From a virus (lineage: Duplodnaviria; Heunggongvirae; Uroviricota; Caudoviricetes), in IMG/VR virus record IMGVR_UViG_2711768002_000004: 39,841 nucleotides of DNA. One strand, given 5' to 3'. The notes beneath the pieces are model-generated. The model did not search any database. It worked only from the letters and a program-made list of their open reading frames with translations, and was not told the origin of the DNA. The position numbers and the translations under genes were made by a program. Numbering within the stretch: position 1 is the stretch's first letter; the number at the start of each line of letters is the position of its first letter. Below, piece after piece: positions 7,555 to 39,841 of this stretch.

Positions 7555-8114
7555 TAAATAGTCTCCTCTTCATGGCTGTTTGCATAAACGTAAATAAACG
7601 TCTGCCATGCAGGCTTATAACGGTTCAGAATACATTCCAGCGCACCGCCTTCATAAATACGCAGCGGCGTGAGAATATCATCCAGCACATTCATATTCCG
7701 GTAGCCGGTTTCACTGTTAATCGTGACAATACTGACCCACTGCGAATCCGGTGAGGGCTGAATGTCAATCTGATAACCAAACTCCGCCGCAAACCGGATA
7801 TAAAATTCACGGTTCAGCGAGGGCTTCATCCGGTATTTATTTCCGGCATAACGCTGTCGCTCCGTGAGGGTGGCTCCGGCCATATCACACTCGGGAAGCC
7901 CGAGATAACGCTCCCAGTCTTCCAGCAGCAGGCGCGACGTGTCAGGGAAACGCTCGGCAAGCAGCTGTTTACCCGTCCAGGATACACGCGCTGTCGAATG
8001 ACTGAGGCCCAGACATAATGATGCCAGTACGGATGACGGACGCTTGTCCCATGCCAGCCCGTCAGGCAGTAACTGCAACAGGGCGCGCTGATGCGGGGTC
8101 AGGGTTACAGCCAT
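7554..8114 (-). CDS. Tail/baseplate protein (Mu gp48-like, P2 gpI-like)
   Basis: 186 aa; position between the baseplate J-like gene and the tail fibre; start overlaps the downstream gene. Confidence 0.65.
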
Positions 8115-9187
8115 GTGATTTCTCCTACCGTCAGCAGCTCACTGTCTCCCGCCTGAACTGACGTCAGCGGACTGCGCACTTCAAAATCCTCCAGATTTTT
8201 CACCCCTGCCACCGCCCGCCAGAAAGACGACGGCAGAACCAGACCGCCGGGCCGGGATTCGTTATACAACAGGTCGGTCAGCGCCTGTTTTACGGCCGCC
8301 TGATTCTCCGGTGTTTTCGGGATGATCCTGATGCTGAAGGGCACCGGCTTATTGGTCAGTTTAAACACGGTCACCGTCGGCCCCAGAGGCTGTCCGACAG
8401 GCTGGCCGGTCGCCGGATCATCATGACTGCGGATATAATCCGCCACCCGCTGAACATCACCGTCACCGGGGAAAATATCCGGGTTATTATCCTGAACAAA
8501 CGTTACCCCCACGCTGCCCGCCTGCGGCCATTCCGGGCGGCACCATGCCCGCGTCACGCCCGGCACTTCACGCGCCCAGCGTTCAAAATCATACTGCGTG
8601 CCGCCGGACGGTGGATTCTGCACCCGGAAAACCAGACGGGAAAGCAGCTCCGGCACGGTTTCCACATCCGCACCACCGGTGATCCCCGTTCCGGTCACCG
8701 TGGCCGTCTGGTTGATCCCCGCCTGCGGTGTGATAAATGTCAGTTTTGTCCCTGCCGGGGCATTCCCCGCACGACCGGCACTTTCGGCTTCCACACTGAC
8801 ATTCAGCGTACCGGCCTTACCGGTCAGGGAGGTGGTGATACGGTAAACCACGCCATCACTTCGCTGGAGAAGCACACCTTCCTTGATCCCCGCATCCGTG
8901 GTCAGCATCAGCTGAACCGGCCCGTCCCCCCGAGAGGCAGGCTTACGCATGACGCCCCAGAATGCACAGTGTTTCAGCAGTTCGGCTTCATCGGCTTCGG
9001 TCGGGATGATCTGACGCGCAATCCAGGCCAGATGCTCATGCTCCTGAGCAGATAACCCTGCCTGAGCGTAAGCAATGGCATTCAGGGTGGTTTCATTCAC
9101 ACCCGGCTGCGAGCCGGGCAGGCGCTGGCTGATATCCTGCTGTGTCTGCGTGATTAACTGTGCCAGCGGTAAAGGCTGATAAGGCAT
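8105..9187 (-). CDS. Baseplate J-like protein (Mu gp47-like)
   Basis: 360 aa; position and size; translationally coupled to neighbours. Confidence 0.75.
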   Translation of the reverse strand: MPYQPLPLAQLITQTQQDISQRLPGSQPGVNETTLNAIAYAQAGLSAQEHEHLAWIARQIIPTEADEAELLKHCAFWGVMRKPASRGDGPVQLMLTTDAGIKEGVLLQRSDGVVYRITTSLTGKAGTLNVSVEAESAGRAGNAPAGTKLTFITPQAGINQTATVTGTGITGGADVETVPELLSRLVFRVQNPPSGGTQYDFERWAREVPGVTRAWCRPEWPQAGSVGVTFVQDNNPDIFPGDGDVQRVADYIRSHDDPATGQPVGQPLGPTVTVFKLTNKPVPFSIRIIPKTPENQAAVKQALTDLLYNESRPGGLVLPSSFWRAVAGVKNLEDFEVRSPLTSVQAGDSELLTVGEITWL

Positions 9188-28628: not shown

Positions 28629-29129
28629 TCAGACTTTCGGCAAATCGTAACGACATAACCATTCATCCGCCGAACGGCGGGCCTCAAGACCGGGGAGTTT
28701 TACCCCCTTTGAATAAATCCAGCGGATATACTGCTTACAGGACGCGGGCATCTGCCCGGCATTGATAAGGCGCAGGAGCGTGGAGTTGCGAAAGTTCGTT
28801 TCACCGGCCCAGAAAATCCAGGAGGCCAGCGCCACCGTCTGACCACGGGTAAGCGGCACCTGAACATGACGATCGATAGCCGCAAAGGCCCATTTCATGT
28901 CCTTTTCCAGCAGCTCCAGACACTCTTCATCAGTTTTTGTCATCCCCGGTTTCACATCCGGGCCGGTATGGCCGTAACAGATGGTGGGGGTGCCGGTGGG
29001 ATCAATGTACGTGGTGTTTTCTTTCCCTTCCCAGTAGCCGGTGTAGTGCGTGGCAATGGTGAACGTCCCGGCTCCGGCCAGAACAAGGGCAATCAGCTTT
29101 TTACGCAGGGGTGCGGGGAGTTTTGGCAT
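28629..29129 (-). CDS. SAR-endolysin (lysozyme with N-terminal signal-anchor-release domain)
   Basis: N-terminal hydrophobic LIALVLAGAGTFTIA, then YWEGKENTTYIDPTGTPTICYGHTG (Glu-Asp-Thr catalytic spacing of T4/lambda-type lysozymes). Confidence 0.8.
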   Translation of the reverse strand: MPKLPAPLRKKLIALVLAGAGTFTIATHYTGYWEGKENTTYIDPTGTPTICYGHTGPDVKPGMTKTDEECLELLEKDMKWAFAAIDRHVQVPLTRGQTVALASWIFWAGETNFRNSTLLRLINAGQMPASCKQYIRWIYSKGVKLPGLEARRSADEWLCRYDLPKV

Positions 29130-29200
29130 TGTTACGCTGTCTCATGGTGTTCTCTGAGTCAGCGTAACCGTGAGGAAAAGGGGGCAGGATTTGCGGAATA

Positions 29201-29623
29201 TCAGAAAAGCCGTGGCTGCGTGCGTTCCTGATGCAGGCGACGCTGGTTGCGGATAACGGAGTAAATCTGCGTCTCTGACATCTGGTAGTGGCGGCGCAGG
29301 GTTTCAATTTTTTCGCCCTGGCTCCAGCGGGAAAAAATTTCATTATTGCGCAGTTCGGTGAAAAGGGATTCACCGACCGGGAGATAATAACCACGCCCGC
29401 CCATGTACCCGGCCTGTGCGGCTGCAACCTTACGGGCAAGCATTCCCGCCTGAGCAGGTTCAATCCCCTGACGGTGCAGTTCAGCACTGATCACATCAAC
29501 CAGGTCCCGCAGCGTGCCGGGCCAGTTCTTTTTCAGCTCATCATCAGGAATATCATCCAGACGGTCAATCAGCGCGTGCAGCTGTTCGCTGTCACCAAAC
29601 ATGCTCATCTGTGTTTCAGCCAT
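29201..29623 (-). CDS. Mor/C-family transcriptional activator (single copy; positioned like Mu C, directly upstream of the lysis genes)
   Basis: 140 aa; C-terminal ...GGRGYYLPVGESLFTELRNNEIFSRWSQGEKIETLRRHYQMSETQIYSVIRNQRR matches the Mor/C family pattern as recalled. Confidence 0.8.
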   Translation of the reverse strand: MAETQMSMFGDSEQLHALIDRLDDIPDDELKKNWPGTLRDLVDVISAELHRQGIEPAQAGMLARKVAAAQAGYMGGRGYYLPVGESLFTELRNNEIFSRWSQGEKIETLRRHYQMSETQIYSVIRNQRRLHQERTQPRLF

Positions 29624-29654
29624 ACCCGCCTCCGGTCATCATTACACAGGGCAA

Positions 29655-29687
29655 GTTTAAAATAAAAATCCCGCGCTGTGGCGGGAT
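29655..29687 (-). terminator. Rho-independent terminator ending the early operon (minus strand)
   Basis: Hairpin ATCCCGCC-ACAG-CGCGGGAT followed on the minus strand by TTTTTATTTT; sits between the GemA-like gene and the Mor/C gene. Confidence 0.55.
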
Positions 29688-29693
29688 TTGGGG

Positions 29694-30206
29694 TTAACGG
29701 GGGAATGATTTTTCATACAGCCTGCAAACACGCTCATAACTCATCACTGCACGTTCCGACATATCCAGGGCTGCCAGCATTTTGCGGCGGTGCCAGCGTT
29801 TGAGACGCTCCAGCACATCAGAGGCCAGCGCGGGTTGTTGCTCCAGCCACTGCCAGTTAGCCACACCTTCGCCGTCGTTCTGCGCGGCCGTCTGCGATTT
29901 CACCCAGCGGTTAAGGGCCGTTTCCCCGCCATCAGAGATAAATCCCTGCCGGTGCATCACTTTCCAGATGGCGCGAATTTTGGCGGTCACCGTACCCGGT
30001 TTTAAGGCCCGGTTAACCGGCTTCTGACGCACTTTAAAACCGCGTTTTTTGAAAACATCCAGCACGCGGGATAACTCACCGGGTGACATATCACGGCAAC
30101 TGGATTTGCCGGTGGCTGCCAGCAGCGCGGATGTATAGGTATCATGGTCAAGCTGTAGATCGCGTTTTGCGACATGTATTAAGGTAATCAGGGAAGCGCG
30201 ATTCAT
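29694..30206 (-). CDS. GemA-like protein (Mu gp16 / DUF1018-like)
   Basis: MNRASLITLIHVAKRDLQLDHDTYTSALLAATGKSSCRDMSPGELSRVLDVFKKRGF... resembles the gp16 family N-terminus as recalled. Confidence 0.55.
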   Translation of the reverse strand: MNRASLITLIHVAKRDLQLDHDTYTSALLAATGKSSCRDMSPGELSRVLDVFKKRGFKVRQKPVNRALKPGTVTAKIRAIWKVMHRQGFISDGGETALNRWVKSQTAAQNDGEGVANWQWLEQQPALASDVLERLKRWHRRKMLAALDMSERAVMSYERVCRLYEKSFPR

Positions 30207-30276
30207 TATCGTGGCTCCATAAAAAATGGGCGGTGTTACCGCACCGCCATGTCAATTAACATAAAAGGAAAAATCT

Positions 30277-30516
30277 ATGTCAGATATAAAAAATGCACTT
30301 GATGTTGCCGCATTCACAATGGCTGGAAATCTTATGGTAACCCTGTTCGATAAGGGGCTGATTTCCCGTGAGGAGGCAATACATATTATCAATCTCGCTC
30401 AAAAAAACTCTACCCCGGAAAATGCAGAAGATATCCAGGATGGCTCATATATTAATACCGACTGGCATTTCGACAATCTCCGGGCCTGTATGGGGATTAC
30501 CGCTGAAAAAGATTAA
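30277..30516 (+). CDS. Hypothetical protein (79 aa), plus strand, convergent with and overlapping the next gene by about 20 nt
   Basis: AAAGGAAAAA Shine-Dalgarno 6 nt upstream of ATG; AT-rich; the only well-supported plus-strand gene in the early region. Confidence 0.5.
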   Translation: MSDIKNALDVAAFTMAGNLMVTLFDKGLISREEAIHIINLAQKNSTPENAEDIQDGSYINTDWHFDNLRACMGITAEKD

Positions 30517-30784
30517 AAATTTTTGCATAATGTTCAGATGTAAGAATTGCTGAACCATCAACACCGAGCCTACGGCGAACGTATTCCTCGCGGGCTATTT
30601 TATTATCCAGAGATACAGCATCCTTAATCAGGTTAATCTCCCGCTCCATTATCAAAAGGGCTTCTCTGGCTGCAAGATTTTCTTTTATCGCATATTCGAT
30701 AATGTCCCGCATACGTTCAAGCATGCCGATTTTAGCCAGTTCTTCGTCGATAGATTTAGGCGCAAATTTGATTTCTTTTTCCAT
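30497..30784 (-). CDS. Hypothetical protein (95 aa, helical, charged)
   Basis: Start re-picked at ATG 30784 (GAGGA upstream; ORF track start is a GTG at 30799): MEKEIKFAPKSIDEELAKIGMLERMRDIIEYAIKENLAAREALLIMEREINLIKDAV... Confidence 0.5.
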   Translation of the reverse strand: MEKEIKFAPKSIDEELAKIGMLERMRDIIEYAIKENLAAREALLIMEREINLIKDAVSLDNKIAREEYVRRRLGVDGSAILTSEHYAKIFNLFQR

Positions 30785-30785
30785 A

Positions 30786-30929
30786 TTATTCATCCTCACA
30801 ATTTATACATGCAGTGTCGTCGCCCATATCGCAGTGGTTACATTTTATCTCACCACAATGTGGGCACTCTTTCAGATACTCCGGGTCCTCATTTCCACAG
30901 GTGGGACATTCAACAATTTGCTCATCCAT
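30786..30929 (-). CDS. Small zinc-ribbon protein (47 aa, four CxxC pairs); not in the ORF track because shorter than 60 aa
   Basis: Hand translation MDEQIVECPTCGNEDPEYLKECPHCGEIKCNHCDMGDDTACINCEDE*; ATG overlaps the stop of the upstream gene. Confidence 0.5.
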   Translation of the reverse strand: MDEQIVECPTCGNEDPEYLKECPHCGEIKCNHCDMGDDTACINCEDE

Positions 30930-31254
30930 TATGTATCCCCTGTAATTCCGGCAAGGCCGAAAGATGGCACCAGTGCGTCACCTGTCCGTCCTCATCTTCA
31001 AGGCAGGCTCCGGTTTCTTCATCAATAAAAAAGCCTTCATACCCCATATGGCCGATGCGCAGTTCCTGTTGGTCACCATACTGAACAATCAGCACGACAG
31101 CCTCCATATCAGGCGGAAATGCGTCATCCAGTGAATGCCAGGGATAACCGCGCAAATCCCCGAAATAAACGCCGGTCAGCGTTCCGCCACAGAGCGGCAT
31201 TCCGGCGGCACACACAAGAGGTTCATCTGATTCAACAAATAAGGTCGTTATCAT
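30922..31254 (-). CDS. Hypothetical protein (110 aa)
   Basis: ORF in the early operon, translationally coupled to neighbours. Confidence 0.5.
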   Translation of the reverse strand: MITTLFVESDEPLVCAAGMPLCGGTLTGVYFGDLRGYPWHSLDDAFPPDMEAVVLIVQYGDQQELRIGHMGYEGFFIDEETGACLEDEDGQVTHWCHLSALPELQGIHNG

Positions 31255-31802
31255 GGCGTTAACTCCCGTAATACAGCGTCCTCGGCAGTCCGGCGACGGT
31301 AATAAACTGCGTGAGCAGAATGTTCAGATATTCCAAACTTTTCGCCAATTTCCCGGAATGACAGACGGCGTGGGTAATCGGAATCACGCAGCTCACGTAT
31401 AAGACGTACATCATCATCAGATATGCGCGTGCCGGGGCGTAACTCTCCGCACTTTGTTAATCCAGCACCAATCATTCCTGCCCGACATCTGACAGAATCT
31501 TTATTACGTCCGAGATATTCTCCCATTTGCTGGCAGGTCATTGTTCTGGCATTTTTTCGAATAAACTTATCTTCATCAGGTGTAAATCTTGGGTGTTTAT
31601 ATTTCAGTAACTCCGGGTATGAACTGCGCAATACACCAGTCCGGTTATATACAGCCCAGACAGTTCTTTTTATTCTGGCAGCAATATCCTTAACCGGGGT
31701 GGATGAATAAAGCGCAATCAGCAGCGCATCTTCTTCAGGTGTCCACGGACGGACATGAGCGGGGGCGCGACCTTTTAGTCCCATGGGTTGTAATTTCATC
31801 AT
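31251..31802 (-). CDS. Putative DNA-binding protein with repeated helix-turn-helix-like units
   Basis: WTPEEDALLIALY...IAARIKRTVWAVYNR, FTPDEDKFIRKNAR...MGEYLGRNKDSVRCR, LSFREIGEKFGISEHSAHAVYYRR: three Myb/sigma-r4-like repeats by eye. Confidence 0.45.
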   Translation of the reverse strand: MMKLQPMGLKGRAPAHVRPWTPEEDALLIALYSSTPVKDIAARIKRTVWAVYNRTGVLRSSYPELLKYKHPRFTPDEDKFIRKNARTMTCQQMGEYLGRNKDSVRCRAGMIGAGLTKCGELRPGTRISDDDVRLIRELRDSDYPRRLSFREIGEKFGISEHSAHAVYYRRRTAEDAVLRELTP

Positions 31803-31805
31803 GCA

Positions 31806-32321
31806 TCACCCCCTGACTCGCTTTTCAGCAGCATAAAACTCATCAGACAGTATTTCGGTCATTTTCTGTTTTGCGGGTTTTACGCCGCACTGAAGGTAAA
31901 TCACATCGTCAACGCAGAACCACTTCACAGGGCCAAACAGGATTGCCGAGAAATCAATACCCAACCAGAACAACAGCGCATCGGTTCTGGCATACGTGAC
32001 GGGCGAATATTCACGCCACAGACTGTTCAGTTCATCAGAGGCAACACGCAGGGTTTTAGGGATACGTGATGTGCGCGGTGTGCAGCTCCAGCCATTCGAC
32101 GCAGTCGGTTTTCGCCATAAGTCGCGATGAAAAGGATATTTGTCCTCCGTAAAACGCAGTCCCTTAAAGTAAAATCCACTGATACCGGATACAAATACCG
32201 ACCGGCACGCAACATTCAGCACGGCCTCAAGGCGTTTTGCCTCATCCTTAACTTTCTGGCAGTCCTGCTGGTATTTTTGCCACGCAGCCAGCGCGGAAGG
32301 GTTTGATGTTTTAAAGAACAT
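31806..32321 (-). CDS. Hypothetical protein (171 aa)
   Basis: ORF in the early operon. Confidence 0.5.
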   Translation of the reverse strand: MFFKTSNPSALAAWQKYQQDCQKVKDEAKRLEAVLNVACRSVFVSGISGFYFKGLRFTEDKYPFHRDLWRKPTASNGWSCTPRTSRIPKTLRVASDELNSLWREYSPVTYARTDALLFWLGIDFSAILFGPVKWFCVDDVIYLQCGVKPAKQKMTEILSDEFYAAEKRVRG

Positions 32322-32854
32322 TACGCCACCTCCGCAGATATCCCGGCAGGCGCTGCTGTCCGGTCAACAATCAGGTAGCGCAGAACATGTTCAGTGATAT
32401 TCCAGCCGCTTAAACCGCAGATAATGACGCCCAGGCGTATGTCGATATACGCCATCACAAACTGGGGCACGCCTTCTTTCATGGCCTGCTCATCAACTTC
32501 AGCCACCACATAAACGGTTTCACAGGTCAGAACGCCCTGAGCAAATTCCCACGCCATCGACGGAATATCATGCCCCTCAATCCATGGCAGGGATTTTCTG
32601 AAGCCGCACCACTGAACATCATCAGCCGCAGATTCCTGGCTGCATTTGCGACGAACCGGCTGCACCGGGCGGGGACGCGGAATATCATAAAAACCGTTAC
32701 ATTCCGTCAGCACGCCTGCATCAACCGCATCACGCAGAAAATAAACCATGGAGGATGGCGGCATATTCATTTTTTCAGCCAGTACACCGCAGGTCAGGCG
32801 GCCATAAATACACAGCCAGTTTTTAACCCCTTCAAGCACTTTTGCATCAATCAT
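32321..32854 (-). CDS. Hypothetical protein (177 aa)
   Basis: ORF in the early operon downstream of gam. Confidence 0.5.
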   Translation of the reverse strand: MIDAKVLEGVKNWLCIYGRLTCGVLAEKMNMPPSSMVYFLRDAVDAGVLTECNGFYDIPRPRPVQPVRRKCSQESAADDVQWCGFRKSLPWIEGHDIPSMAWEFAQGVLTCETVYVVAEVDEQAMKEGVPQFVMAYIDIRLGVIICGLSGWNITEHVLRYLIVDRTAAPAGISAEVA

Positions 32855-32999
32855 GATTTATTTCCCCACCACATTATTAATGACGATATAAACGTATTTC
32901 ATATTTCTTAACCCTTATTTTCTGTTTTCAGGCGCAAGCAGTCCCCTGACGCGAGCGCCATAATTAAAATGAAGTGATATTTAATTGATTAATGCGGTG

Positions 33000-33530
33000 T
33001 TATTTATTCAGTCCGGCGTCCTGTTCAAAAGGCTCGACATAAAAACTTTCAGCGCCTTTATTCACCTTGATACCGGCAATGCCTTTCACAGCATCCGGCT
33101 CCGCCAGGACGGCTTCCTTGTTCACTTCCTCTTTCGTGCGGATGAAACGCTCAAGCCCCATACGGCGCAGCATTTCAATCACACCTTCCACATCACGGCT
33201 GACGCTGCATGATGGCGTTCCCAGCCGCCATGACACCGTTCCGGTGGTCAGATTGGCTGTTTTGGTTTTGCCGCCGTTCGTCAGCTCATCACGGTTGGTT
33301 TTGCACCAGTCCTGAATCCCTTTAAAAAGCACTTTGATTTGCTTTTTAAGATTTTCAATCTGCGGCGTATAACGGGCGGTGATTTCTGCCACTTCGTCAT
33401 TCATCGCCGTTTCCAGGCGCAGCGCCTCTCGCTGAATATCTCCCAGGGTGCGGATATCACGGCTGACTTCTTCCCGGGTCTGCGGTGCCGCCTCGGCTGC
33501 GGCCTTTAATTTTGTAACGCGTTTAGCCAT
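33000..33530 (-). CDS. gam: Gam-like host-nuclease inhibitor (DNA-end binding protein)
   Basis: MAKRVTKLKAAAEAAPQTREEVSRDIRTLGDIQREALRLETAMNDEVAEIT...NRDELTNGGKTKTANLTTGTVSWR...RFIRTKEEVNKEAVL...EPFEQ closely parallels Mu Gam as recalled. Confidence 0.85.
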   Translation of the reverse strand: MAKRVTKLKAAAEAAPQTREEVSRDIRTLGDIQREALRLETAMNDEVAEITARYTPQIENLKKQIKVLFKGIQDWCKTNRDELTNGGKTKTANLTTGTVSWRLGTPSCSVSRDVEGVIEMLRRMGLERFIRTKEEVNKEAVLAEPDAVKGIAGIKVNKGAESFYVEPFEQDAGLNK

Positions 33531-33541
33531 TTTGTTTTTCC

Positions 33542-33835
33542 TTATTGCAGTGTGCCTGATGCTTTATGCACGCGGTGGCGTTTAATGATGGCATCCGCTC
33601 CAAAAGACTGTGCAGATGCCTGAAATTCCGCTGAGAGAAACTGAATAATTGCAGGACTGTGATACTGGAGAATACTTGCATAAACGTCACAGAGTGACGT
33701 CGGCCTGTTATCCGTATCACGTTCTGTTTTCACATCCACTCCAATCTTTTCATGCACTTCAACACAGTCATTGCCTGCCAACTTTTCGTCATGCGAAACA
33801 TGATTAAATTCAAAAATAACGCGTACTTTGCTCAT
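33542..33835 (-). CDS. Hypothetical protein, paralog 2 of a tandem pair
   Basis: Start re-picked at internal Met (MSKVRVIFEFNHV...), immediately after the stop of the upstream paralog. Confidence 0.5.
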   Translation of the reverse strand: MSKVRVIFEFNHVSHDEKLAGNDCVEVHEKIGVDVKTERDTDNRPTSLCDVYASILQYHSPAIIQFLSAEFQASAQSFGADAIIKRHRVHKASGTLQ

Positions 33836-33839
33836 GGAA

Positions 33840-34112
33840 TTACCCCTGTTGATTAAATTCATTACCGTTAATAACCCCGGAAGCCATGCCTCTGTCTTTC
33901 ATGAATGCACTGGCTTTCATTGCCACAAACTCTGCGAAGTTTCTGCTTTCTGCCAGCATAACCACCCCAAAAATCATGGCGGGTCCATTATCTTTCTTCT
34001 TTATTCCGGTTGAACGTATATCCAGACTTACCCCTCTGTGCGTGCTGCCATCAGAGTTTTTGCAGATAACATCTTCCTTGTATTCGAAAATAATGCGTAC
34101 GACTTTACTCAT
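33840..34112 (-). CDS. Hypothetical protein, paralog 1 of a tandem pair
   Basis: MSKVVRIIFEYKED... shares its N-terminal pattern with the next gene. Confidence 0.5.
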   Translation of the reverse strand: MSKVVRIIFEYKEDVICKNSDGSTHRGVSLDIRSTGIKKKDNGPAMIFGVVMLAESRNFAEFVAMKASAFMKDRGMASGVINGNEFNQQG

Positions 34113-34658: not shown

Positions 34659-34886
34659 TTAGCTGACTTGTTTCGCACCAACAGAACGGCATATTCCGCT
34701 GTAAACTTCTGTCGCACCTTCGCGATCAAGTCCGGCAGATATCACCATTCGTGTGCGGTCATTAAATTCAAAAAGTAAATCGCCACATTCTTTATTTTCG
34801 GCCAGTGAAATCACCTTCACGTTATCGAAATTAACCAGGTAAAAGCGTCCGTAAATATCAGGAATATTAAATACCGCCATAATCAC
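34659..34886 (-). CDS. Small early protein directly downstream of B (position of Mu kil)
   Basis: 75 aa; positional analogy only. Confidence 0.45.
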   Translation of the reverse strand: MIMAVFNIPDIYGRFYLVNFDNVKVISLAENKECGDLLFEFNDRTRMVISAGLDREGATEVYSGICRSVGAKQVS

Positions 34887-35824
34887 ACCTGTGAGAGTAA
34901 TTCAGGGTTGGTATAAACCTCTTTAAAGGCCGCATTAATATGTTTTTCTGTCAGCGCCGCGCCTTCACCGCTGGCGGTGAGCCACGCCTGGTTAAGCGTA
35001 TGTGTCAGAACGCGTAACGCTCCCGGCTTTTCAGCGATAGCCTGCATGACGGCCAGCTCGGCCTCACCACTGATCCCCCACGCCATGGCAATGGCCAGCA
35101 CATCCGCCTTTTTGGCCTTGCGAAGTTGTTTTGTACGGGCAAGACGGCTGAACAGGCGCGATAAATCATCAAAGGCGCGGCGTCCACCTTTAAACAATCC
35201 GCGCGGGTTACCAATAAGCACCATCCCGATCCCCGTGGCGTCCTGAATTGCCCGGAGTTGCTCCAGACCGTCAATACCAAGATGATCCGCCTCATCCACA
35301 ATCACCAGTCCACGCGTTCCCATCAGGCGACGGCGGATGGCGCGGGATAATGCCCCTTTGTTCGCGCGGGTGTAATCAATCCCCAGCGCATCGGCCAGCT
35401 CCAGCAGACACTCCGTGACGCTGGAGTGCGCGGGTGACAGGGTGATCATCCAGGTGTTTGGTTGCTCCTGGCAGTAATTACGGGCAGTGGCCGTTTTACC
35501 CACACCCGGTACGCCCACAATAACGTTAATACAGCCCATCAGGCGAACCGCCTGAAACAGTGCGCGCAGCTCCTGGACTGTCTGAGTTTCCACAAACTGC
35601 GGCGGTTCCGGCAGTGCGCTTTGTTTATTCCAGTTCTCATACCAGGAGCGCAGGGAAGCAGCCACAGCAGCGTTATCGCCTTTATATTTTCCCTTACGGA
35701 AAGCCGATAATGTGCCGTCGGAAATTCCCGCCTCTCTGGCGATGGCATACTGCGTCAGTACGCCGCCATCAATAAGTTCATCAATGGTCTTGATTACATC
35801 GTTAATATCGGTCATATTATTCAC
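34883..35824 (-). CDS. B: Transposition protein B (MuB-like ATP-dependent target DNA activator)
   Basis: 313 aa; P-loop VGVPGVGKTATARNY, DEADHLG, and end-to-end similarity to Mu B as recalled (PEPPQFVETQTV..., KPGALRVL...). Confidence 0.9.
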   Translation of the reverse strand: MNNMTDINDVIKTIDELIDGGVLTQYAIAREAGISDGTLSAFRKGKYKGDNAAVAASLRSWYENWNKQSALPEPPQFVETQTVQELRALFQAVRLMGCINVIVGVPGVGKTATARNYCQEQPNTWMITLSPAHSSVTECLLELADALGIDYTRANKGALSRAIRRRLMGTRGLVIVDEADHLGIDGLEQLRAIQDATGIGMVLIGNPRGLFKGGRRAFDDLSRLFSRLARTKQLRKAKKADVLAIAMAWGISGEAELAVMQAIAEKPGALRVLTHTLNQAWLTASGEGAALTEKHINAAFKEVYTNPELLSQV

Positions 35825-35897: not shown

Positions 35898-37985
35898 TCA
35901 GGCCAGCGGATCACTTTCTTTTAATTTCGCTTCGAGCAGTTGCAATCCCCGCTGGAAATTACGCTCGTATTCTTCATCAGGTTCATCGTCAGCGACCGGT
36001 TGCTGAACGGTCACCGTATTACCCACAGGGCGGTATATGTTTTCCAGCCAGGGCTCCTGCGGCTTGTGCTCCAGCACGTTGACAACCTCATCCTCGGCAT
36101 CACGGATTTTTTCCTCTGCGCGTTTACGCATGCCTTTAAGGCGCTGCTGCTGTTTGTAGTATTCCGCGCTGACAGGGAAGGCTTCGCGTTTATTGCCGTC
36201 CCATACCGCCTCGCAAATCACGCTGCCATCCGGGCGGCGCACGGTAATTCGTTCGGCATCATGAATGTCATAGCTGATAAGTACCTTACGGCCATGCTCG
36301 TCACGCAGCTCGGGCGCGTAGTAAATATTATTCAGCCAGCGTATTTCACAGCGTCTTACAGGGCGCTCCACCATCGGCCGGAACATATCCCGCAGTTCAA
36401 CATCGGACAGCCATTCAATTTCCGTGTCCTCTTCCGCCAGGCGTTTTTTTCTGAACTCCGCCGGGCTGTAATGTTTACCGTTCGGCTTCATGGGTAATTC
36501 ATCGTGCGGCCGGTTGTTGTACCACTCAACACCGTCACGAATGGCATCAATCAGTTCAGACCAGGACGGTAAATCACGCATCGCTGACTGCTGCCGGGCG
36601 TTCAGCCGTTTGCCCTGTTGCAGGGCACTGAATGCCGAGCGTAAATCGCGGTTGGTTTTACGTAACGTCTCGCGATCTGCTCCTTTCCCGAAATAGGTGC
36701 GGTATTTACGGGCTATGCGCATCGGTAATGTGCGGTTAAGCCGTTCGATAATGCCCCGTCCCTGCGGATTACCGGCAATCCCTGTCGGGTGATTAATCCC
36801 CAGTCGTGGCAGTATCCCCACAATCTCCTTATCCAGGACGTCGGCGGTTTCCCCGGAGCCATTATCCGAGTAATACAGAAACGGTTTGCCATGATGGCGA
36901 ATACCGTGCTGTATGGCACCGGCTACGGCGAAAACATTTTCAGCCAGGTCAAGGCTCCAGCCCACCACAAAGCGCGTGCCACCGTCGATAACAAAGGTCA
37001 CTTCCGGTGCGAATGGCCGCCCGTGAACCGGGTGCGCGCATTTCAGCTTCATGCCGTGACCGTCACCAATCCAGACATAATTCACCGGCATTCTGGACCA
37101 GTCGCGGCGCGTGAATCCCTCAAGCTGACGGTATTCACTGCCAGTTACCCGGCCTTTTTGTTTCACCACTTCCGGCAGTTTCTTCATTGCGCGGCGAATG
37201 GTGTCATAAGAGGGCATGATATCGAGCATATAAGGCTCATCAGCGTGCCGGTGCTGCCATTCAGCAACAAAATCCTCGTAAGCCTCGGTCATTGGTCGGC
37301 CGTTTGACTGGCGATACTGCGCCAGAAATTCGGGCAGCCAGTTAATATCTTCGGCTTTTATTTCCTGGCGTTTACCCGGTGCCAGTAAAAGCAGGCGTTC
37401 AGCGGCGTTCTGTGCCTTGTTAAAGGCCGCAATCCAGCGTTTCAGCGTGATTTCACTCAACGCGCGGCTGTTTCCCTTTTTGGCGTTCGCCGTCTCAACC
37501 ATTGCCACAATGCGCTCGTCCAGTTGTGATCGTGCCAGGCTGTTAACGAGGAACCGGATAGCTTTAGCGCAGCTGAAACCGGGTTGTTGCGTGAATTTCA
37601 GCACCTCACTGACGATCGCAATGCGTGCGTCTGCCACCTGGCGCTGGTTTTCAGTCAGGGCATTGAGGCGTTCGACCATCAGTTGTGGTGATCCGCGATA
37701 TGCCTCCACCGCATCAACCACGGCAGACGAGCGTCTGGCCTTTGTCACCACCGGAGCCGGTGATTCATCGGCTTTTTGCGTCATCAGTTGCAGGGCATAA
37801 CGTTCGCGTAATGCCTGCTGTGTCACTTCAGGTAAACAGTCAATGCTGTATTCAAAACCTTTAGCGCCTTTCTTGCGGCGTCTGCTGGTTTCGCTGGTTG
37901 CATACTTCCTGATTGAATAGCGAACGCCTTGCTCCGTTCCCGGCATCCCCGGTAATCCAACCAGTTCTTTAACTGAAGCAAACAT
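35898..37985 (-). CDS. A: DDE transposase (MuA-like)
   Basis: 695 aa; N-terminal VSPKE..LPG-like opening (ASVKELVGLPGMPGT) and position directly after ner. Confidence 0.9.
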   Translation of the reverse strand: MFASVKELVGLPGMPGTEQGVRYSIRKYATSETSRRRKKGAKGFEYSIDCLPEVTQQALRERYALQLMTQKADESPAPVVTKARRSSAVVDAVEAYRGSPQLMVERLNALTENQRQVADARIAIVSEVLKFTQQPGFSCAKAIRFLVNSLARSQLDERIVAMVETANAKKGNSRALSEITLKRWIAAFNKAQNAAERLLLLAPGKRQEIKAEDINWLPEFLAQYRQSNGRPMTEAYEDFVAEWQHRHADEPYMLDIMPSYDTIRRAMKKLPEVVKQKGRVTGSEYRQLEGFTRRDWSRMPVNYVWIGDGHGMKLKCAHPVHGRPFAPEVTFVIDGGTRFVVGWSLDLAENVFAVAGAIQHGIRHHGKPFLYYSDNGSGETADVLDKEIVGILPRLGINHPTGIAGNPQGRGIIERLNRTLPMRIARKYRTYFGKGADRETLRKTNRDLRSAFSALQQGKRLNARQQSAMRDLPSWSELIDAIRDGVEWYNNRPHDELPMKPNGKHYSPAEFRKKRLAEEDTEIEWLSDVELRDMFRPMVERPVRRCEIRWLNNIYYAPELRDEHGRKVLISYDIHDAERITVRRPDGSVICEAVWDGNKREAFPVSAEYYKQQQRLKGMRKRAEEKIRDAEDEVVNVLEHKPQEPWLENIYRPVGNTVTVQQPVADDEPDEEYERNFQRGLQLLEAKLKESDPLA

Positions 37986-37987
37986 AA

Positions 37988-38218
37988 TTACGCGACCTTA
38001 CGAATGTAGCGGCTGGGCCAAATCTCCTCGGGCGGCACCCCCAGGCATTCCGCGATAATCCCCTCATACTTGGGAACATGGCGGTATACCGCGTTGTACA
38101 GATTGTTCTGACCCACGCCAGCTTTACGGGCCAGCGCCCTCATGCTTCCTTCTCTGGCTCTGACTTCCCCCAAAATTCTTTGAGGATGCCAATCAGGCTT
38201 AACTTCATTTCTCGCCAT
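37988..38218 (-). CDS. ner: Ner-like DNA-binding early regulator
   Basis: 76 aa; ...DWHPQRILGEVRAREGSMRALARKAGVGQNNLYNAVYRHVPKYEGIIAECLGVPPEEIWPSRY matches Mu Ner pattern; stop is 2 nt before the A start. Confidence 0.85.
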   Translation of the reverse strand: MARNEVKPDWHPQRILGEVRAREGSMRALARKAGVGQNNLYNAVYRHVPKYEGIIAECLGVPPEEIWPSRYIRKVA

Positions 38219-38403: not shown

Positions 38404-38949
38404 ATGAACAAGCAAACAACAACATCTCTTTCTTTTCCTGGTGGTAGAAAAGAAAGCATTGCTGAGCGTCTGAAAAGGCTGATTGGCTCCCGCAGCGTCA
38501 GAGCTGCAGCAAGAGATTGGGGGCTTTCATTTTCAACACTAAACAATTATCTGTCTCGTGGCACTGAGCCATCCTTAAGTGTCGCCCTTCAGATTGCGTC
38601 TATCGAAGGAGTAAGTGTTGAGTGGCTATGTGGATTCAGTGATGCATCACAAGTGAATCGGTGTGAGATCAAGGAAAATCAAGATGAAAGCAAGAAGATA
38701 ATTATGACGATTATCAGCGCACTTGATGAAAAAGACTTAGAGCAGCTATCGAAAAATTTGGTTCTGAATGGAGCCAAGTACTTAGCTCGGTTGTTAGAGC
38801 CTGAAAATCAAGATCTAATCCGCTTAGAAGGAAGGAAAAGAATAGCTGCATTACAGCTTGAAGGTATGTCTGACGAACGCGTCAGAGAGATTTTGGAAGA
38901 AACTGAGAGAAGTCGCAAATCTAACGCGGTAGAACCAAAAGCGGGTTAA
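38404..38949 (+). CDS. Prophage repressor, XRE/CI-type helix-turn-helix (functional analogue of Mu c)
   Basis: 181 aa; HTH ...SVRAAARDWGLSFSTLNNYLSRGTEPSLSVALQIASIEGVSVEWL; divergent from ner-A-B; no S24 peptidase motif seen. Confidence 0.75.
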   Translation: MNKQTTTSLSFPGGRKESIAERLKRLIGSRSVRAAARDWGLSFSTLNNYLSRGTEPSLSVALQIASIEGVSVEWLCGFSDASQVNRCEIKENQDESKKIIMTIISALDEKDLEQLSKNLVLNGAKYLARLLEPENQDLIRLEGRKRIAALQLEGMSDERVREILEETERSRKSNAVEPKAG

Positions 38950-39185
38950 TAGCATTAGCCCGCATTTTGCACTATATCGAGTATTTCGCATTGTTTGGAA
39001 CGCCTTAAAAGACTAAAACCACAGTATCAAATGAGTTGCCGATTTTATAATAAATGACTAATTATTGCACAATCGGTATCAAATAGACCTTATCCGCACA
39101 TCTAGCCATCACCTGTTTTATTTCAGTATCTTACAGGTGATTTCACCTCCTTTCACTAAACCCCTTGTCGGTATCAAATGATTCA
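38950..39185 (-). repeat. Prophage left end with three transposase-binding-like direct repeats
   Basis: (C)GGTATCAAAT at 39023-39032, 39074-39084 and 39169-39179; on the phage strand the element would begin 5'-TGAATCATTTGATACCG. Confidence 0.6.
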
Positions 39186-39506
39186 CCTGGTTATATGTCG
39201 CCAGTCGATACCTTCCAGCAGCATCGCCAGCTGCGCCTGTGTAAGGAACACTTTGCCATCACGGGCTGACGGCCAGGCGAAGCGCCCACGCTCCAGCCGT
39301 TTGGTCAGGAGGCACAGTCCGTCACTGGTGGACCACAGCAGTTTAACCTGACTGCCGCTGCGGCCCCGGAAAATGAAAACATGGCCGGACATGGGATCGT
39401 CTTTCAGCGCCGTCTGTACTTTCGCAGCCAGGCCGTTGAAGCCATTTCTCATATCGGTGATACCGGCAACCAGCCAAATTTTGATCCCGGAAGGTAACGG
39501 GATCAT
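39183..39506 (-). CDS. tnpB: IS66-family TnpB (orf2); 3' end apparently fused to the prophage terminus
   Basis: MIPLPSGIKIWLVAGITDMRNGFNGLAAKVQTALKDDPMSGHVFIFRGRSGSQVKLLWSTSDGLCLLTKRLERGRFAWP...; stop codon TGA (39185-39183) coincides with the putative TG terminus of the prophage. Confidence 0.85.
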   Translation of the reverse strand: MIPLPSGIKIWLVAGITDMRNGFNGLAAKVQTALKDDPMSGHVFIFRGRSGSQVKLLWSTSDGLCLLTKRLERGRFAWPSARDGKVFLTQAQLAMLLEGIDWRHITR

Positions 39507-39841
39507 CGCTTCAGTTCCTGTATCAGCAGAGTCAGGAGCTTTTCGCTGACATTGCCATTGAAGCGGAGCGTCCCGTGCCGGAACGTTACCTCACAGCTGA
39601 TACTGAGGGTTTTCGGGTCCTCTGCGAGCGATTCTGGCTGTTCGGCAGCTGCATCGAGAGTCACAGGAAGTAGCTGGGGGCTCTCTGAAGAAGGTAATAG
39701 CTGAGGTGTACTGGCAATAGCGGACACTACCATTTGTTCTTTTTTTAAGCAGCCATCTGATGATATTTTTCCCTGAAGGCTGCCGGGGAGATATTCCCCA
39801 GACGAGAGTGACGACGCTGACGATTGTAGAAAATCTCAATG
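39503..39841 (-). CDS. tnpA: IS66-family TnpA (orf1), partial; frame open to the window end
   Basis: Upstream of and overlapping tnpB; ...EKLLTLLIQELKR C-terminus; reading frame has no stop up to 39841. Confidence 0.55.

Follow-up and report, generated by a model that had tools for sequence, protein, structure and literature searches.

Sequence comparisons relate the gam-to-gemA block of an Escherichia coli Mu-like prophage to genes gp11-gp15 of phage Mu

Results

Gene content of the block

The window analysed here is a stretch of 39,841 nucleotides (nt), IMG/VR virus record IMGVR_UViG_2711768002_000004, which contains an Escherichia coli Mu-like prophage on the minus strand. Bounded by the GemA and Gam genes of this prophage is a block of seven open reading frames (ORFs), which we name by the lengths of their products (Table 1). 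An earlier sequence-only reading had proposed the block as the likely site of an undescribed defence or counter-defence module. Its seven ORFs were all confirmed at the claimed coordinates by the ORF list, and Pfam matches to GemA and Gam bore out its placement in the early, semi-essential part of a Mu-like phage. The idea of an undescribed module did not survive comparison with Mu, as five of the seven have a counterpart there (gp11, gp12, gp13, gp14 and gp15). Sequence comparisons showed homologues of these genes (for gp13, its zinc-ribbon part only) in Mu order and orientation, with two extra genes between gp12 and gp13 that encode a gp9-related protein with three helix-turn-helix (HTH) repeats and a weakly DUF551-like protein.

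Directly after gam lies the gene for p177, which aligned to Mu gp11 with 68% amino acid (aa) identity over 177 aa and matched the Pfam family Gp11_C (PF25754; E 5.7e-41, 139 bits against a 27-bit cut-off). The AlphaFold2 model of p177 has a predicted local distance difference test (pLDDT) score of 62, and its three N-terminal helices are winged-helix-like; the top Foldseek matches were all winged-HTH regulators (Lrp/AsnC or MarR), none of them significant (E at least 0.065). Immediately after gp11 follows p171, with 55% identity to Mu gp12 over 168 aa (E 1e-68). All 46 p171 homologues found carry PF26885 (Phage_Mu_Gp12), and p171 was assigned to this family via these homologues.

The sequence-only reading had pointed out a 47-aa protein with four CxxC motifs that the ORF track had missed. 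The four motifs were confirmed in p47 (MDEQIVECPTCGNEDPEYLKECPHCGEIKCNHCDMGDDTACINCEDE), which is left unannotated by RefSeq and the Prokaryotic Genome Annotation Pipeline (PGAP) in the 100%-identical E. coli genome NZ_CM128582. Against residues 20-60 of Mu gp13 (E14), 36 of 41 positions are identical (88%) and all eight cysteines are kept; p47 also matched phrog_5584 (E 3e-26) and phrog_6418 (E 1.7e-20). The correspondence to gp13 is not full-length, as p47 lacks the N-terminal 19 residues and has six residues before its first CxxC, versus 19-20 in Mu, SfMu and the prophage locus L048. In the Mu-like prophage L049 (4010-4705), gp12 is replaced by a 231-aa protein (phrog_6418) that ends in a complete gp13 sequence with all four CxxC motifs. 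Based on this fusion, the gp13 zinc ribbon can be a domain of a larger early protein.

The next gene product, p95, aligned to Mu gp14 with 49% identity over 94 aa (E 3e-25, blastp against Mu proteins) and matched phrog_6075 (E 6e-44). PGAP likewise starts p95 at the ATG at 30784, and a GAGGA ribosome-binding site lies 7 nt ahead of this codon.

Of the two proteins between gp12 and gp13, p183 was confirmed by repeat analysis to have three HTH-like repeats, as had been claimed. It matched phrog_323, named "transcriptional regulator, D5-like" (E 5e-53), and aligned to Mu gp9 (E8) with 27% identity (E 6e-6). Repeats 1 and 2 both have an RxWTPEED signature, and repeats 2 and 3 align to one half of Mu gp9 each (shuffle z-scores 8.9 and 5.9). 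Pfam scores fell below the gathering thresholds for Myb_DNA-binding (19.7 vs 24.4 bits), HTH_AsnC (18.8 vs 27 bits) and HTH_10. PGAP names the product a SANT/Myb-like DNA-binding domain protein; this name, PHROG 323 and the repeat pattern are all that point to a SANT/Myb-like assignment, which we treat as putative. The other protein, p110, is variably present among related prophages, and blastp against Mu proteins found no Mu counterpart. Its C-terminus resembles DUF551 weakly, with a score of 14.6 bits where the cut-off is 22 bits.

Where the six minus-strand genes meet, stop and start codons adjoin or overlap (TAATG, ATGA, gaps of 1-3 nt and an 8-nt overlap of the p47 start with the p110 stop). 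These junctions are as expected of one translationally coupled operon.

Table 1. Positions of the genes and the hairpin of the block and of other prophage genes in the window.
Feature	Position	Strand	Remarks
p79, reverse-oriented gene	30277-30516	plus	79 aa; putative distant homologue of Mu gp15 (Mup15), in the equivalent position
p95, Mu gp14 (E15) homologue	30497-30784	minus	from ATG; 30497-30799 (100 aa) from a GTG start
p47, 4 x CxxC zinc-ribbon mini-protein	30786-30929	minus	47 aa, eight cysteines
p110, accessory protein	30922-31254	minus	110 aa; phrog_6925, E 2e-51
p183, putative SANT/Myb-type or HTH repeats (three)	31251-31802	minus	183 aa
p171, Mu gp12 (E13) homologue	31806-32321	minus	171 aa
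p177, Mu gp11 homologue	32321-32854	minus	177 aa; three-helix N-terminus and Gp11_C domain
GC-rich hairpin	30229-30248	minus (early strand)	GGCGGTG-CGGTAA-CACCGCC, then CAUUUUUUAU
Mor	29201-29623	minus	Pfam Mor match
GemA	29694-30206	minus	PF06252, E 1.8e-28
Gam	33000-33530	minus	PF07352, E 5.5e-42
MuB ATPase	34883-35824	minus	
Transposase A	35898-37985	minus	ORF list
ner	37988-38218	minus	ORF list
Repressor c	38404-38949	plus	orientation as in Mu

The reverse gene p79 and its relation to Mu gp15

The gene for p79 converges tail to tail on the p95 gene, and the overlap, put earlier at about 20 nt, is exactly 20 nt (30497-30516). It had been called the only plus-strand gene of the early region. 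This is true of the coding sequences annotated by PGAP from MuB to the lysis genes, and A and ner are also on the minus strand, but repressor c shares the orientation of p79.

Homologues of p79 were found in nine clusters among 1.84 billion cluster representatives searched. Beyond near-identical copies, they are 67-85 aa long, align with 31-49% identity and share the motifs FDVAAFTLAGN..KG.lS.EEA at the N-terminus and DWHLDNL at the C-terminus. The p79 protein matches phrog_32893 (E 1.3e-45). Pairwise BLAST did not relate it significantly to Mu gp15, and the link between them is visible to profile methods only. Aligned with hhalign, the p79-family profile matched Mu/SfMu gp15 over columns 1-54 with a probability of 93.1% (E 3.1e-7), and Mu gp15 matched the PHROG of p79 at E 5.9e-4. 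These alignments suggest a remote homology confined to the N-terminal two-thirds.

In the Mu record NC_000929, Mup15 (gp15, 88 aa) is on the complement strand (7896-8162); it shares 62 nt with gp14, and its start is 70 nt away from gemA. The two public Mu annotations conflict at this place, as AF083977.1 replaces Mup15 with a forward-strand gene "Mu_54" (7960-8127, 55 aa). The complement ORF matches phrog_8747 with E 6.6e-60; the best PHROG match of Mu_54 has E 0.027, and homologous loci show no conservation of the forward-strand translation. Because the reverse gene gp15 appears real and conserved, the AF083977 call looks like an assignment to the wrong strand.

The low GC content of this end of the block, which had been noted before, raises the alternative that the stretch is a recent foreign insertion from outside Mu-like phages and that the 79-aa ORF is a chance or decaying frame. 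At 0.418, the GC content of 30207-30929 is well below the 0.536 of the whole window, and only 4.5% of equal-size windows are as low; the claimed island holds for this part, whereas the entire block (0.48) is just mildly lower than the early-region mean (0.51). The gp14/gp15 module, however, also stands out from its surroundings by a lower GC content in Mu, in SfMu and in diverged Mu-like prophages, and low GC is therefore a trait of the module rather than a sign of recent foreign origin. As for the ORF, the most distant p79 homologues keep the motifs at both ends and a similar length, and p79 is for this reason, as far as sequence can tell, a real gene under selection and not a chance frame. 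Opposite-strand translations at p79-family loci are not conserved, and substitutions relative to a 92.6%-identical copy favour third codon positions (10, versus 5 and 3). Decay finds some encouragement in several database copies that are frameshifted towards the C-terminus. Taken together, the insertion or chance-ORF alternative is largely refuted, and we consider it very improbable.

The frameshifts just mentioned (copies P0005 and P0007-P0010) begin at, or just after, an A7 run (caaaaaaac) at 30399-30405. Sequencing errors at the homopolymer, decay of the copies and slippage are all candidate explanations.

Conservation of the gp14/gp15 pair, the hairpin and gemA

We compared the encoding loci of five diverged p79 homologues, which represent five Mu-like prophage groups. 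All five loci lie in Mu-like prophages, with MuB, Kil, Gam or DUF3164, GemA, Mor and lysozyme nearby. In each of them the gp15-family gene is reverse-oriented and converges on a gene of 95-121 aa, with an overlap of 4-98 nt as called; the partner genes all belong to the gp14 family (29-60% pairwise identity), and the gp14-family members examined are always paired with a reverse gene. This co-occurrence check, which had been proposed with the sequence-only reading, found the gp14/gp15 pair together in all five diverged groups. A lone reverse gene converging on a helical protein had been presented as unusual; it is instead Mu's own gp14/gp15 arrangement (NC_000929), conserved in diverged prophages.

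The distance to gemA is also conserved: in four of the five loci, 68-74 nt separate the start of the reverse gene from the gemA start codon; in the fifth (L047), two genes intervene. In the window, the 70-nt spacer holds a hairpin between the p79 start and the gemA ribosome-binding site, found by a terminator scan (Table 1). It has a 7-bp stem with six GC pairs and a 6-nt loop, a predicted folding energy of -16.2 kcal/mol (z -3.0), and ends 8 nt before the GGAG of gemA. This hairpin looks like a predicted intrinsic terminator or attenuator. A GC hairpin with a T-run also stands directly before the gemA ribosome-binding site in three of the four loci with the ~70-nt distance (all three for which intergenic sequence was at hand). 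No hairpin was found in L047, with its intervening genes, or in relatives that have gemA directly after forward genes.

The stem and loop GGCGGTG-TTGCAG-CACCGCC are common to Mu, L041 and L044. The window and L050 have the same stem but a different loop, whereas L048 and two loci described below, L004 and L011, have different stem sequences in which pairing is retained.

An exchangeable cassette upstream of gemA

Among 5426 complete E. coli genomes, the gemA lineage of this prophage was present in 231, of which 14 have the gp13-gp14-gp15 cassette. A full alternative cassette is found in six of the 231; in the E. coli TOE17 locus (L004, 1880-2990; also L009, L012-L015 and L038), it consists of two forward genes of 116 and 102 aa and a reverse DUF2513 gene. 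Most other genomes of the gemA lineage have sets of small genes that all run forward, and membrane segments are predicted for some of these. The gp13-gp14-gp15 cassette is thus an optional, exchangeable cassette in this prophage lineage, and the block is both core and accessory: the gp14/gp15 pair recurs across diverged Mu-like phages, yet the cassette is optional within the lineage. The sequence-only reading was right to see an exchangeable hotspot here, as regards the low-GC part, although not an undescribed module. In L011, the forward genes and the hairpin of the alternative cassette are kept and the reverse gene is lost.

In another explanation, the gp14/gp15-like pair and the hairpin form a regulatory switch. 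This could operate by antisense transcription or transcriptional interference that sets gemA-mor transcription, or as a toxin-antitoxin or regulator-antiregulator protein pair. The two families always occur together, convergent, with overlaps of 4-98 nt and mostly ~70 nt from gemA; the hairpin with its T-run is present only where the reverse gene or a remnant of it is present; and the stem changes through compensating substitutions. However, no promoter was identified, neither family resembles a known toxin, antitoxin or regulator, and in most E. coli relatives the pair is absent and gemA is joined directly to forward genes. Since most relatives lack it, the pair appears dispensable for the early-to-middle switch, and we regard a regulatory switch as doubtful, though deserving of attention.

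Small-gene cassettes are exchanged at the slot before gemA in E. coli Mu-like prophages, which makes this slot a sensible place to seek lysogen-expressed or anti-host functions.

Searches for function

The seven proteins had no match in PADLOC-DB v2 at E <= 0.1 and none in NCBIfam, and neither search matched the proteins of the alternative cassette. Searches of PDB sequences with single proteins and family profiles gave nothing significant, and an Rfam scan of 29000-34000 returned chance-level matches only. Neither the p79 family nor the gp14 family showed a toxin or antitoxin domain in Pfam, NCBIfam and PDB-sequence searches, and no nuclease, NTPase, membrane or sensor domain was detected in the seven proteins by Pfam or PHROG. 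Structure prediction, which had been suggested as a check, gave no informative structural neighbours for function. Literature searches on Mu gp11-gp15, the semi-essential region and DUF2513 found nothing on function. Two weak resemblances were rejected: Hsp70-lid helices (best PDB match of the p79 family, E 0.027) as compositional, and a SHOCT-like resemblance of the motif KG-I/L-S-x-EEA in one family member (E 0.06) as insignificant. The statement that no function can be assigned therefore holds for all seven proteins. The genes are in large part conserved Mu genes, but not genes with known roles.

These results bear on the earlier proposal of an undescribed module, in the block as a whole or in its low-GC part, for anti-phage defence, superinfection exclusion or counter-defence. 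Like accessory hotspots, the slot upstream of gemA has a mosaic content when related prophages are compared, with a different reverse gene (DUF2513) at the same place in the alternative cassette; the reverse gene is potentially expressed in the prophage, as is typical of morons; and every product is uncharacterised. The PADLOC and NCBIfam searches, on the other hand, matched none of the proteins of the block or of the alternative cassette, and Pfam and PHROG detected none of the domains named above. Furthermore, the gp14/gp15 pair is a conserved syntenic Mu-like unit fixed beside gemA rather than free-floating cargo, and the six forward genes are coupled into a lytic early operon. Although the searches and the structural comparisons provide evidence neither for nor against a defence role as such, we consider a module of this kind improbable.

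Surroundings of the block in the prophage

The 2.7-kb block is 100% identical to that of E. coli strain 600029 and 99.9% identical to those of four further complete genomes, and it has 91% identity to a Mu-like phage inserted in an Stx1a phage. In addition to the prophage genes in Table 1, a lysozyme gene is recognisable in the window.

Between gam and the gp11 gene is a gap of 145 nt (32855-32999), where close relatives and SfMu have a DUF5420-family gene (~190 aa; L005 5159-5737, L008 855-1409); this gap is a second insertion/deletion point of the early region. Both flanks of the prophage hold pieces of one IS66-family element. One flank has a small ORF in the tnpA position (39503-39733), without a Pfam match, and TnpB (39183-39506; PF05717, E 1e-37), whereas the other has only the C-terminal end of the IS66 transposase (191-538; positions 222-284 of the DDE_Tnp_IS66 profile). 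From these pieces, the IS66 transposase gene appears to be the insertion site of the Mu-like prophage.

A Mom-family protein of 310 aa is encoded at 691-1623, with the Pfam Mom domain at residues 96-298 and ~95 residues preceding it. Beside this gene, GC content falls to its lowest in the window (0.33 at 1601-2000), in a stretch that holds an unassigned 97-aa plus-strand ORF (1839-2132) without a Pfam match.

Discussion

Interpretation of the block

In the reading that we favour, with a probability of about 75%, an E. coli Mu-like prophage has in this block the promoter-distal half of its semi-essential early region, that is, the Mu gp11-gp15 set with two insertions, arranged as a coupled operon with one diverged reverse gp15. 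From established Mu biology, the six minus-strand genes would be read from the early promoter Pe in lytic growth. Weak evidence of fold and family suggests that gp11, with its winged-helix-like N-terminus, and p183 may be nucleic-acid-binding accessory factors; they would probably tune phage development or host takeover, rather than act as enzymes or as a defence system. Judging from geometry, p79 would need a promoter of its own and would most plausibly be made when Pe is repressed, because convergent transcription from Pe would oppose it. The same geometry suggests that the hairpin may attenuate early transcription entering gemA-mor.

Several points weigh against this interpretation. The relationship of p79 to gp15 rests on ~54 N-terminal columns, and the C-terminal halves do not align. 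The p177 (gp11) model is of low confidence, and its fold matches are not significant. Neither a promoter scan nor reading of the sequence gave a convincing sigma-70 promoter for p79, the time of whose expression is inferred only; the sole sigma-70 scan match nearby (30116-30145) is inside gemA and unremarkable, and the 70-nt spacer between p79 and gemA is filled by the hairpin and ribosome-binding sites, with no room for a promoter. If the hairpin terminates strongly, its place 8 nt ahead of the gemA ribosome-binding site would be hard to square with the need for Mor, unless it is leaky or regulated. Lastly, none of the seven proteins has a demonstrated function, either from this analysis or from the literature found.

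A more speculative version, which we think quite unlikely, treats the convergent gp14/gp15 pair and the hairpin with its U-run before gemA as a conserved, unstudied Mu-like switch. In the lysogen, p79 would be transcribed, either for an exclusion-type function or so that collision with leaky Pe transcription insulates gemA-mor; upon induction, Pe would silence p79, and read-through of the attenuator would time Mor and the early-to-middle transition.

The corresponding region of phage Mu was sequenced decades ago, and its genes are still called hypothetical. As a variant of that region, the block offers little for discovery, except for one lead worth following: the conserved unit of gp14, gp15, hairpin and gemA is a testable handle on early transcription entering gemA-mor.

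Comparison with known systems

The closest known system is the set of Mu genes 11-15 (Mup11-Mup15; formerly E10-E15 together with the complement-strand gp15) between gam and gemA, which has the same order and orientation in the window. The convergent overlap of gp14 and gp15, the 70-nt spacer between gp15 and gemA and the stem of the hairpin are all common to Mu and the window. Mu differs in lacking the 183-aa and 110-aa genes between gp12 and gp13, and in having the 19 N-terminal residues of gp13 that the window counterpart is without. The gp15 proteins belong to different PHROGs (32893 in the window, 8747 in Mu) and cannot be aligned in their C-terminal halves; the overlap with gp14 is 20 nt in the window and 62 nt in Mu; and the hairpin is followed by a proper U-run in the window (CAUUUUUUAU), but not in Mu (CCCUUUCC).

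In p183, repeats 2 and 3 resemble Mu gp9 (E8) and SfMu gp09 (PHROG 323). Compared with Mu gp9, however, p183 is about twice as long, has an extra N-terminal SANT/Myb-like repeat and is encoded on the other side of gam.

In the TOE17-type alternative cassette, which is located in this slot too, the architecture is the same (two forward genes, a convergent overlapping reverse gene, a GC hairpin and gemA ~64 nt away). Its proteins are nevertheless unrelated (phrog_6158, 1988 and 585, versus 5584, 6075 and 32893 in the window), and its hairpin stem differs in sequence.

Morons are reverse-oriented, low-GC, independently transcribed cargo genes of temperate phages. Like prophage morons, p79 is on the strand opposite to the operon, has low GC and is part of an exchangeable segment, but it differs from them in having no identified promoter or terminator of its own. 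Moreover, prophage morons are sporadic, whereas p79 keeps a fixed partner and position across diverged Mu-like phages.

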